28,187 nt of DNA, taken from positions 1-28,187 of the IMG/VR virus record IMGVR_UViG_3300023118_000008. One strand, written 5' to 3'. This document shows, piece after piece, positions 17,328 to 20,230 of the stretch. The notes beneath the pieces are model-generated. The model made no database searches, was not told the DNA's origin, and worked only from the letters and a program-made list of their open reading frames with translations. This stretch comes from a virus (Duplodnaviria > Heunggongvirae > Uroviricota > Caudoviricetes). Within the stretch, counting starts at the first letter, position 1; every line of letters starts with the position of its first letter. Made by a program: the position numbers and the translations under genes.

Positions 17328-17359
17328 TTTGGTTATTTGGATTTTAGTTTGTATCTTTG
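17328..17359 (+). promoter_or_regulatory. Bacteroidota sigma70 promoter, rightward (divergent pair)
   Basis: TTTG (17328-17331)-N20-TATCTTTG (17352-17359). Confidence 0.8.
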
Positions 17360-17380: not shown

Positions 17381-17594
17381 AATGCAAAAAGACAAGCTCG
17401 GATTCTTCGAGTATAAAGAAGTTATCTACGGTTTCTTGAATGAGCTGATTTTAAATTCTTTCGCGGAAGAAAAAATAGAAGAGATACTCTACTCTCTTTG
17501 GAACAGCTACTACACAAGCCAAGTAAAAGAAATCTCAATAAAAAGAGATGCCCAAGTTTTAGAAACGGCATTATTCTTCTTAATCAAAGGTTAA
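17381..17594 (+). CDS. hypothetical protein (start about 17381-17382, MQKDKL...; the track's 17337 start lies inside the promoter)
   Basis: A-rich leader before the ATG; promoter immediately upstream. Confidence 0.65.
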
Positions 17595-17598
17595 ACTG

Positions 17599-17630
17599 TT
17601 TGGTTTTAAGTATTTTAATTCCTATCTTTG
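17599..17630 (+). promoter_or_regulatory. Bacteroidota sigma70 promoter upstream of the structured leader
   Basis: TTTG (17599-17602)-N20-TATCTTTG (17623-17630). Confidence 0.8.
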
Positions 17631-17639
17631 ATTATTATT

Positions 17640-17795
17640 ACGCGTGTGAAGGGGAAGTCACACAAAACATAGAATTTTAAAGGTTATAATTGTTGTAGCA
17701 CTCTTTTATAAACCACATCATAACAGTATTTAAAAATTACCCTGTTAGATAAAAACCAGTGCTACTTTAGGTTTTTATTTTTCGGGGCTTTTTTA
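17640..17795 (+). ncRNA. candidate structured leader RNA/ncRNA (four hairpins, complementary loops)
   Basis: Inverted repeats at 17644-63, 17682-714, 17721-47, 17747-80; GTAGCACT (17695-702) is complementary to AGTGCTAC (17758-65). Confidence 0.45.
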
Positions 17796-17800
17796 TTTTA

Positions 17801-18706
17801 ATGCAAAAAGTTTTCAGATTGCCATCACAATTATATTTTGATCTGTTTTCTACTCCTGAGTTATCAGGAGACAAACTTATTGCTGTTTACTCAATCTTGA
17901 AAACCTCAAGAAATGGTGAAGTAAAATATTATGCTTACAAAGCTAAAAATAATAAATTTGTTAGTGGATATTCTCTTTTGAGAGCAAAAACTAACATATC
18001 GTTGAAGACATTAAAAAAATATGTTCCTGCATTAATAGAAAAAGGTTTATGTCATTTTGACGAAAACGGAGATTTTGTATTATTAGGAAATAAGAAAGTT
18101 AAAGAATTATATACAAGAAAGCTTGTACCTGTTGTTATAGGTGAAAGTTTTCTTGATACTGCCCTAAAAGTAATGTCTGTAAGAATCCACTCGAAAGAGG
18201 GATATCAAAAGAAAGAAATTGCAAAAAAACTAACTCGAAGTGAACAACTAAAGCAAGTGGTTGATAAATCTAATACAAACGCGGGAAAAAGAGCCCTAAA
18301 GCGTTCTGTAAAGGATGAGTCAGTTATTATCGAGAAAACTGTTTTATCGTTGCAAGGATTTTCTAAATTAAAAGACGGAACTTTAGACAATAAATCTAAA
18401 GGGTATTATTGGAAGAAAAAATTAAAAGCAAAAGGGTTGGTTAAGACTTCAAGAAGATTTGAAGAAATTGAAAAAATGTCTTTCTCAGAATACCAGTATT
18501 TAAAATCTGTCTTTGGTTTGCAAAGAGCGGAGACTTACAATAATGGATTTTTGTGTAGAGAAACTATTTCTTCTTTTTCGGCGGTGGATTTAACCAAAAA
18601 GGAAATTAAATTAGAAATTAAAGTTTCTCCTAGAAAACCATCAAAGAAGCCTATCAGATTAGACTTTGATATGATTAAGTTTTGGGAAAGTGGGGCAGGA
18701 AATTAA
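17801..18706 (+). CDS. HTH DNA-binding protein, candidate replication initiator (Rep-like)
   Basis: 301 aa, very basic; N-terminal wHTH (LRAKTNISLKTLKKYVPALIEKGLC) and a second wHTH-like segment (YYWKKKLKAKGLV); heads the replication arm. Confidence 0.5.
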   Translation: MQKVFRLPSQLYFDLFSTPELSGDKLIAVYSILKTSRNGEVKYYAYKAKNNKFVSGYSLLRAKTNISLKTLKKYVPALIEKGLCHFDENGDFVLLGNKKVKELYTRKLVPVVIGESFLDTALKVMSVRIHSKEGYQKKEIAKKLTRSEQLKQVVDKSNTNAGKRALKRSVKDESVIIEKTVLSLQGFSKLKDGTLDNKSKGYYWKKKLKAKGLVKTSRRFEEIEKMSFSEYQYLKSVFGLQRAETYNNGFLCRETISSFSAVDLTKKEIKLEIKVSPRKPSKKPIRLDFDMIKFWESGAGN

Positions 18707-19018: not shown

Positions 19019-20230
19019 ATGGGAAAATTAAAATGGACATATGAAGCTTGCAAAGAAGAGGCTTTAAAGTATACTACTAGAAATCAATATTCTAAAAATT
19101 CAGCTAGTTCATATAACTCAGCTAGAGAGCATAAATGGTTAAACGATATCTGTTCTCATATGAATTACGAACAGCTTCCCAAAAACTATTGGACTAAAGA
19201 GATATGTCAATTAGAGTCTCTAAAATATTCATCAAAAGTTGATTTCAAATTAAATTCACCAACTGCATATTCTACAGCTAGGAAGAGAAAATGGTTTAAC
19301 GAGATATGTTCACATATGGAAGTTACAAGAAAACCTAATGGATATTGGACAAAAGATAGGTGTAAAGAGGAGGCATTAAAATATACAAACTGCACAGACT
19401 TCCAAAAAAGTTGCTCAAGCGCATATAATACTTCTTTAAAAAATCAATGGTATTGTGAAATAACTAGTCATTTCGAACTAAAAGGTAATTGGTATAAAAG
19501 ATTCATTTATGCGTACGAATTTATAGATGGTAGTGTTTATGTGGGATTAACTTATAATATAGAAGAAAGGAGAATATCCCATAATATAAGCGGAAGTGTG
19601 TTTGAATACATAACTAAAACTGGTTACACATTTAATTTTGTGCAGATAACACCAGAACCTGTTGATGTTGAAGATGCTAAAAAACTAGAAGCTTATTATT
19701 TAGATAAATACATTAAAGAGGGTTGGAAACCTCTGAATAAAAATAAAGCAGGAGGAGTTGGAGGAAACAGTCTAAAATGGACAATTGAGAATTTAAGAAC
19801 AGAAGCACTTAAGTATAACTACAGAGGAGAATTTACAACTAAAAGTCCTTCCGCTTATAACGCGGCTTTAAAAAGAGGGTTATTAGATAGTATTTGTTCC
19901 CATATGACTAGAAAGCATAAAGAAAAAGCAGTATATTCTTTAGAGAAATGTATAGAAATATCTTGTAGATATACTAATATGAGAGACTTTGTAAAAGCAG
20001 AACCCGCCGCATACCACGCTGTCTTAAAAAATAAATGGCAGGAATTTCTATGTGAAACCTTAATTAGAAAAAGGAATGTTAAGAACTATTGGGATTATGA
20101 TAAATGCATAGAAATTTCTAAAGATTTTAAATCTTTTACAGAATTAAGAAATAAACATTATGGTGCGTATAAGTTAATTCTAAAAATGGGTTGGCAAGAG
20201 CGGATAAAAAATAAATTTAAAAATGATTAG
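19019..20230 (+). CDS. free-standing GIY-YIG homing-type endonuclease with six ~52-aa repeats
   Basis: FIYAY-x7-VYVGLT..IEERR core; repeats W..E.C..EALKY....F...S..AY..A....W...ICSHM, three on each side. Confidence 0.8.
   Translation: MGKLKWTYEACKEEALKYTTRNQYSKNSASSYNSAREHKWLNDICSHMNYEQLPKNYWTKEICQLESLKYSSKVDFKLNSPTAYSTARKRKWFNEICSHMEVTRKPNGYWTKDRCKEEALKYTNCTDFQKSCSSAYNTSLKNQWYCEITSHFELKGNWYKRFIYAYEFIDGSVYVGLTYNIEERRISHNISGSVFEYITKTGYTFNFVQITPEPVDVEDAKKLEAYYLDKYIKEGWKPLNKNKAGGVGGNSLKWTIENLRTEALKYNYRGEFTTKSPSAYNAALKRGLLDSICSHMTRKHKEKAVYSLEKCIEISCRYTNMRDFVKAEPAAYHAVLKNKWQEFLCETLIRKRNVKNYWDYDKCIEISKDFKSFTELRNKHYGAYKLILKMGWQERIKNKFKND

Follow-up and report, generated by a model that had tools for sequence, protein, structure and literature searches.

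A conserved phage leader RNA with a covarying loop–loop contact and an attenuator-like layout

In the CI RNA of phage P4 and the c4 RNAs of P1 and P7, a single leader transcript carries short, mutually complementary words through which premature termination, or translation, of downstream genes is controlled. These words covary between related phages and define specificity. The RNAs are processed and act in trans on linear sites, in temperate phages or plasmids of enterobacteria, and c4 is a family in Rfam. The leader described here resembles them in that its words, too, are complementary and covary; it differs in joining its words by a kiss between a loop and the loop of a terminator-like hairpin, which P4 CI and c4 lack, and in matching no Rfam family at the gathering score. 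The late unit of lambdoid phages, PR'–6S RNA–tR', offers another comparison: it is released by Q, an antiterminator protein that loads at the promoter. Here, as there, a promoter is followed within ~200 nt by a terminator, a putative one in our case, and the genes downstream would need read-through. The lambda promoter is constitutive, and lambda needs no intramolecular kiss; no Q-like factor was identified in our phage.

Control of repZ in the IncI-alpha/IncB plasmids relies on the leader peptide repY, on an antisense Inc RNA, and on a pairing partner adjacent to the RBS. There, as at our locus, the leader of a replication gene contains a hairpin whose loop pairs with a distal stretch, and a preliminary description of the locus, made from the letters of the DNA, called its proposed switch reminiscent of this system. 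The analogy breaks down in the details: our leader contains no ORF, no antisense promoter is conserved, and the partner of the upstream loop is a terminator loop rather than an RBS-proximal sequence. The pRNA of phi29 likewise carries two mutually complementary loops in one RNA, covarying between phages. Its loops are 4 nt long, pair between molecules, and build a ring on the packaging motor. Our element differs in type of genome and in context; it heads a replication block in a 144-kb phage, and the leader matched neither the pRNA family (RF00044) nor any other in Rfam at the gathering score, nor anything at E values up to 10; membership of the pRNA family, raised earlier as an alternative, is thereby set aside. 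Pairing between copies of the leader RNA stays conceivable. With each of the systems compared so far, the leader has no more than single features in common.

The nearest mechanism is the expression platform of corrinoid riboswitches, where a kissing loop stabilises a marginal hairpin and so tips the choice between terminator and antiterminator (PMC10327014). Our leader is like the L5–L13 contact of these (cobalamin) riboswitches, in which an upstream loop contacts the loop of the marginal platform hairpin, and the partners covary and are swappable (PMC10327014). Unlike them, it has no aptamer (the RF00174 core was not matched) and no known ligand, and its upstream partner is a plain hairpin; the kiss spans 8–12 bp rather than 4–5 bp, it is hypervariable, and the hairpin kissed is the apex of the terminator itself. 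The zipper attenuator cATT of pLS20 (PMC13401043) also occupies the leader before an operon's first gene and is also built of an upstream stem-loop, a central hairpin and a terminator, with the first and last structures complementary. In our leader, pairing is limited to two loops instead, with no inward extension, and both hairpins can coexist. A literature search found no published description of an equivalent leader, and the RNA control element is uncatalogued.

The leader and its promoter

The phage record (IMG/VR) is 144 kb long and 98% complete; the window—the whole stretch of DNA analysed—is its first 28,187 nt. Leftward tail and structural genes reach to ~17245, and a rightward block opens at 17328 with a 70-aa ORF (17382–17594), a 301-aa gene (17801–18706) and an 87-aa ORF, continuing with a GIY-YIG nuclease gene, an SF2 helicase and a UvsX-like recombinase. 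The leader lies inside the 206-nt gap (17595–17800) between the 70-aa ORF and the 301-aa gene, the first gene of the replication/recombination block. One homologue carries a name from a Flavobacterium MAG, which points to a Flavobacterium-type host.

The full consensus promoter claimed in the preliminary description is there, and it is of the Bacteroidetes sigma-ABfr type, whose consensus is TTTG / TAnnTTTG (PMC7366714). It occupies 17599–17630 on the + strand, with the −33 TTTG at 17599–17602, a 20-nt spacer, and the −7 element TATCTTTG at 17623–17630; transcription is expected to start around 17636–17640. Most relatives have an equivalent promoter immediately upstream of the leader. A second, near-identical promoter-like site of the TTTG–20 nt–TATCTTTG type lies at 17328–17359. 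The two 32-nt copies, 271 nt apart, are 78% identical; the gene after each begins ATGCAAAAAG, and together the copies may represent a duplicated promoter module. There is also a perfect 9-nt inverted repeat, TAATCAAAG / CTTTGATTA (17581–17589 / 17626–17634), that links the end of the 70-aa ORF with the leader promoter's −7 box. RNA started at the upstream promoter would fold at this repeat into a hairpin spanning the second promoter.

Read directly, the folded leader takes up ~165 bases between the promoter and the 301-aa gene. The four hairpins previously noted are all present, all on the + strand, as is the 8-nt loop pair. The 5' hairpin, H1 (17644–17663), pairs GTGTGA (17644–17649) with TCACAC (17658–17663); it is clade-specific and hypervariable, with counterparts of different sequence in loci L031 and L033, and it falls outside the covariance model described below. 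H2 (17682–17714) pairs GGTTATAA (17682–17689) with TTATAAACC (17706–17714) and displays in its loop word 1, GTAGCACT (17695–17702), the exact reverse complement of 17758–17765. H3 (17716–17750), a candidate antiterminator, pairs the linker CAUCAUAACAG (17716–17726) with CUGUUAGAU (17742–17750); its core is TAACAG (17721–17726) / CTGTTA (17742–17747), and its 3' arm overlaps the ascending strand of the terminator. H4 pairs AGATAAAAACC (17747–17757) with GGTTTTTATTT (17770–17780) around an apical loop (17758–17769) composed of word 2, AGTGCTAC (17758–17765), and a conserved spacer, TTTA (17766–17769).

An outer helix, CCCTG (17740–17744) / CGGGG (17783–17787), escaped the preliminary description. 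It extends H4, which becomes the upper stem of a long, terminator-like hairpin (17740–17787) with a G/C-rich base abutting the U tract. After it come the U tract and a conserved A/U-rich tail, CUUUUUUAUUUUA (17788–17800), that runs to the start codon; the U tracts reported earlier are at 17789–17799, and the ATG is at 17801. No ATG occurs within 17631–17800, so the leader is ATG-free, as had been said.

Comparative evidence for the stems and the loop–loop contact

Finding relatives required a profile: blastn of the region against the phage collection gave no match, nor did a scan of viral contigs with the single protein. The 301-aa protein has 104 homologues in metagenomes, and profile search combined with exact look-ups produced 31 distinct loci with the same local gene order, i.e. 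31 related phages with the same leader ahead of the orthologous gene. MAFFT alignments of these leaders are non-structural, and RNAalifold predicted no pairs on them, so a covariance model was seeded from one well-aligned clade instead (A6, R1), and then rebuilt on 21 matches (R2). The model matches the element at full length in 27 of the 31 loci; every one of these matches lies on the + (sense) strand and ends at the start codon.

Since the alignment was fitted to the model, the pairing and covariation figures are biased in its favour; the margins are nonetheless wide: pairing reaches 86.7% of stem cells, versus 60% when shuffled and 35–54% with slid partners; double-sided changes are found in all 28 of the modelled stem pairs; and the covariation score is 0.657, versus 0.214 for shuffles and at most 0.17 for slid partners, with none of 500 shuffles reaching the observed scores. 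H2, helix 1 of the model, has double-sided changes in 12/12 pairs and 85% of its cells paired. The long hairpin, helices 2–4, has them in 16/16 pairs, with 84–92% paired; its base helix covaries in 5/5 pairs and is 91.5% paired. Summed over the per-pair table, the stems hold 69 G·U cells, each of which would be an A/C mismatch on the opposite strand, and so the RNA is the sense transcript. Folding of the single sequence is not significant against shuffles (z = −1.4 for the + strand and −1.7 for the − strand), and one complementary pair of 8-mers is not rare by itself in 144 kb. It is the comparative data, not single-sequence folding, that are decisive and that put the leader beyond chance. On this comparison of sequences, we regard it as confirmed to be a genuine RNA element.

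The two words behave in the same manner. In all 31 loci, the upstream word has its exact reverse complement 30–50 nt 5' of the start codon, and the letters of the words differ in nearly every phage, even at 95% protein identity. The word is GTAGCACT here, ATAACGAG in L031 (the protein of which is 95% identical), AATCAACAGT in L033, and ACTAGGAATC in L003. The perfect Watson–Crick match between the two loops is 7–12 nt long across the relatives, and the word-to-word spacing ranges from 49 to 69 nt. Measuring this contact takes some care. Longest Watson–Crick runs in 55-nt windows are swamped by A/T runs, and were replaced by duplex energies and by loops that the model delimits independently of loop–loop pairing (~10 nt for H2 and ~13 nt for the apical loop); loops from single-sequence minimum-free-energy folds are unreliable in AT-rich RNA. 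Between the model-delimited loops, the longest cognate Watson–Crick run averages 8.5 nt (7–10 in 26 of 27 phages), versus 3.5 nt for non-cognate loops. In 25 phages the cognate loop partner strictly outranks all others among the 27, and none of 20000 permutations reaches the observed mean. Wide-window duplex energies, a cruder test, are −17.6 kcal/mol for cognate and −10.8 kcal/mol for non-cognate partners (Mann–Whitney p = 4e-16). Linker and loop columns do not keep one register across clades; in a clade alignment with the loops in register, 6 of the 10 kiss pairs show double changes. Stems and loop pairing, which the preliminary description proposed to check by covariation in relatives, do then both covary, and we take the kissing-loop contact to be genuine, as shown by this covariation.

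Pairing ends exactly at the edges of the loops. One position further in than the words, pairing is seen in 0 of 27 phages, and the 3' arm of H2 fits the ascending strand no better in cognate than in non-cognate combinations (−1.16 versus −1.01 kcal/mol; 5343 of 20000 permutations as good). Because pairing is confined to the loops, both hairpins can coexist with the contact, which makes it a kiss and not a zipper, and on the same figures a zipper-type attenuator of the pLS20 cATT kind was rejected. The kiss pairs are, moreover, exclusively Watson–Crick: there are no G·U pairs among 244 in the 27 phages, helix ends included. In the stems of the same 27 RNAs, G·U makes up ~11% of paired cells.

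The long hairpin has a mean folding energy of −20 kcal/mol across the relatives, and on average 5.4 of the first 8 nt after its stem are U. In our phage the CCCUG/CGGGG base is followed directly by CUUUUUUAUUUU; in several relatives the U tract beside the stem is interrupted (e.g. UCGUCAUUUUU). A terminator scan with an 8-nt loop limit did not call this hairpin because its loop exceeds that limit. The AUG follows by ~10–20 nt in nearly all copies, leaving no room for another promoter. Taken alone, the apex—four closing pairs around a large loop—is marginal, at a mean of +1.2 kcal/mol; the loop–loop duplex has a mean energy of −14.5 kcal/mol, and −10.8 kcal/mol for the 8-mer here.

H3 competes with this hairpin: by pairing with the ascending terminator strand, the 3' portion of the linker forms an alternative helix that excludes the terminator stem. 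Its duplex energy is −4.45 kcal/mol for cognate and −2.70 kcal/mol for non-cognate arms, a difference that none of 20000 permutations equals, and the arms are compensated between clades (UAAAGA/UCUUUA, AAAGUG/CGCUUU, AGAGG/CCUCU, UAACAG/CUGUUA). It is a weak helix, of −1 to −8 kcal/mol, and barely present in one clade. When growing prefixes of the leader are folded, H1, H2 and H3 form first, H3 before the descending strand exists. At an intermediate stage, while the descending strand is still missing, the state of lowest energy is a nested word 1:word 2 helix with H3 inside it; the complete terminator takes over only when the final five nucleotides of its stem have been added. Judged from such folds, word pairing could speed the terminator, or could delay it instead. 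The layout as a whole, a terminator-like hairpin and U tract before the AUG with H3 as competitor, reads as the anatomy of an attenuator.

Copies before other genes, and turnover of the words

The covariance model and two architecture scans revealed no further copies in this genome. The match at 48 kb is a plain hairpin, GCCACT/AGTGGC, with a U tract ~20 nt before an ATG in a divergent intergenic region (G000 48028–48126; L041:1501–1599); it is terminator-like and in a leader, and it has no kissing partner. In the complete genomes of relatives the model does find extra copies. One of these, G001, has three copies, all with promoters of their own and with distinct pairs of words (ACTAGGAATC, GTGAGACG and GTAACGG): one copy stands before the orthologue, another before an HNH endonuclease gene, and another before ~700 nt without an ORF. 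Another, G002, has a second copy, with the word CCGCCAAG, before an HNH endonuclease gene. The HNH genes behind the two extra copies are of phrog_953 and phrog_374. Because the copies stand before unrelated genes, the element is a portable, gene-independent cassette rather than an operator for the 301-aa protein. The remaining G001 copy (116199–116328) is followed by ~700 nt without an ORF of at least 50 aa, then by small ORFs and a PAPS-reductase-like gene; since no ORF adjoins it, this copy speaks against a role in translation alone. This ORF-free stretch (L054:1600–2300, minus strand; G001 about 115500–116200) is, by eye, richer in G+C than its surroundings, and has no match in Rfam; it may be a large non-coding RNA.

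The 301-aa protein has an N-terminal winged-helix domain, a long helix, and a second alpha/beta domain. Its AlphaFold model (pLDDT 83.6) gave no clear Foldseek match, and its sequence no match in Pfam, PHROG or the PDB. Aligned by VIA-align, the model is a generic winged helix (Z at most 6.1), with ORC2, Cdc6 and a plasmid initiator appearing alongside IclR, ArsR and TFE; on the strength of this model, the label 'Rep-like' is no more than possible. The preliminary description had proposed a kissing-loop switch or attenuator for an initiator-like gene. The kiss and the attenuator layout have stood up, and the tie to Rep has not: copies occur before HNH genes, and the winged helix is a generic one.

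The words turn over quickly. Compared with L031, the gene is 90–96% identical in nucleotides and the promoter 93%, whereas identity falls to 40% in H1, 53% in the H2 loop region and 67% in the apical loop region. Over eight close pairs of phages, identity is 62% in the H2 stem, 62% in the H2 loop and 66% in the apical loop, versus 92% in the linker, 87% in the terminator stems and 94% in the tail. Wobble-free pairing and fast turnover of H2 and the loop word suggest, as far as sequences can, selection for a specificity beyond that of a purely structural contact. How both sites change together, and what selects for novelty, are the questions that these two features raise. A search of three other genomes (two 100% complete, one 86%) for exact copies of the full-length words turned up the two loops and nothing else. 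The 10-mer TTGTAGCACT, which is word 1 with two flanking bases, recurs at G000 131196–131205 inside a 2450-aa minus-strand ORF; this is probably chance, as ~0.3 matches are expected from base composition.

A possible mechanism, and its rivals

We lean, with somewhat better than even confidence, to the view that the leader is a kissing-loop-assisted terminator, or attenuator, that gates transcription into the downstream gene. It would be a self-contained, cis-acting cassette of promoter, upstream hairpin, competing helix, and intrinsic-terminator-like hairpin. Host RNA polymerase would initiate at the sigma-ABfr-type promoter. H2 would fold first, showing its 8-nt word in the loop, and the linker would pair with the ascending strand of the terminator as H3, holding that strand before the descending strand is made. 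As the apical loop of the terminator emerges, word 2 would dock on the H2 loop by eight strict Watson–Crick pairs. The apical hairpin alone is predicted at ~+1 kcal/mol and the loop–loop duplex at ~−11 kcal/mol here (~−14.5 on average in relatives), and with an apex so marginal and a duplex so strong, we propose that the kiss would lock the apex. From there the descending strand would anneal downwards, oust H3, and close the G/C-rich base beside the U tract, and polymerase would stop 2–12 nt before the AUG. Should the kiss fail or come late, H3 would persist and polymerase would read into the gene. Termination itself we infer, and likewise the direction of the kiss's effect and its modulator; the leader has no ligand-binding domain or other obvious sensor. 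If the kiss does set the efficiency of termination, this would be a riboswitch-like expression platform working without an aptamer, its specificity reprogrammable by changing two complementary words, which would be of use both in understanding phage timing and in making orthogonal RNA parts.

Alternatively, though we think it unlikely, the terminated leader of ~160 nt could be a stable small RNA that acts in trans, with words that pair with the matching loops of nascent leaders. The two words would be an address code by which each short RNA recognises solely nascent leaders with the same word, setting a delay, a dosage feedback, or the specificity of incompatibility or immunity between co-infecting relatives and paralogous cassettes, and their hypervariability would keep cassettes orthogonal. 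Much in the words suits this: identity of 62–66% in H2 and the terminator loop word, versus 87–94% for the rest of the leader in close relatives; words wholly different from those of L031 despite 95% protein identity; 244 kiss pairs without wobble; and different words in the copies of one genome. There are precedents, too, in P4 CI RNA (seqB with seqA/seqC), P1/P7 c4 RNA, and the antisense incompatibility determinants of plasmids. But both words reside in one molecule, where intramolecular pairing would mask them; full-length words are absent elsewhere from the genomes of three relatives, and the extra 10-mer here is within chance; and with a single copy in this genome, orthogonality within it is not needed. 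Were the address code nonetheless real, the phage would have a timer or dosage sensor for delayed-early genes and homing endonucleases that consists of RNA alone and needs no protein; between related phages it would determine incompatibility or exclusion, and arms-race selection for new words would explain both the strict Watson–Crick pairing and the concerted turnover of H2 and loop. A little less likely again is an effect on translation or mRNA stability, the kiss-locked hairpin in the 5' UTR setting ribosome access to an A/U-rich start region that lacks a Shine–Dalgarno sequence, or shielding the 5' end from RNases. Bacteroidetes mRNAs do lack Shine–Dalgarno sequences and depend on unstructured, A-rich start regions (PMC7366714), the hairpin does end 10–20 nt before the AUG in nearly all copies, with the tail the most conserved part (94%), and the minimum-free-energy fold lets the A-rich linker pair with the U-rich tail. 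No covarying helix sequesters the start codon, however, one G001 copy (116199–116328) has no ORF close behind it, and an A tract upstream, a G/C-rich base and a U tract immediately after it are together how an intrinsic terminator is built.

Two further readings have little to recommend them. Countertranscript control, of the IncI/IncB or pT181 type, would have an antisense RNA bind the loops and control a pseudoknot or the terminator. Any antisense transcript would match both words automatically, and there is a minus-strand TAnnTTTG box at 17879–17872, but this box is lost in the 95%-identical L031 and found at the homologous position in few of the 31 relatives; with an ATG-free leader, no leader peptide, and no Rfam family at the gathering score, we consider such control very improbable. 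It is more improbable still, if only slightly, that the element acts as DNA, either as the hairpin-rich origin once suggested or as an inverted-repeat site for a protein such as the winged-helix product. That idea draws on an AT-rich region at the head of a replication block, on words that are perfect inverted repeats without wobble, and on the weak resemblance of the winged-helix domain to those of initiators and ORC (Z at most 6.1). Words that differ completely at 95% protein identity and among three copies in one genome tell against it, as do spacing that varies from 49 to 69 nt, copies before unrelated genes, and a model that matches the sense strand only, with 69 stem G·U pairs that would be A/C mismatches on the other; an origin, in particular, does not fit.

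Almost nothing is known of how Bacteroidetes phages regulate their genes, and their hosts do without Shine–Dalgarno-based control. The leader looks like a portable control module, with its own promoter, a programmable loop–loop contact of 8–12 nt, and a terminator, placed before replication genes and before selfish endonuclease genes. In our phage the slot 3' of the 87-aa ORF (window 19019–20230) holds the GIY-YIG nuclease gene; L031 has another gene there, of 311 aa, and L033 a D12-class methyltransferase. The slot is a variable insertion site beside the conserved unit of leader and gene. In L010 (2201–2300), L025 and L022, the cassette adjoins a tRNA region, and tRNA-like 3' ends (e.g. GGTCGTTAGTTCAAATCTAAC...) lie directly 5' of the leader promoter. 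In L007 (2270–2400), L014 and L021, a second conserved element of ~100 nt lies between the promoter and the kissing-loop leader. The one in L007 ends in a clean terminator (TCTAACTTACGGAGTTAGATTTT), and in these several relatives the element may be another small RNA.
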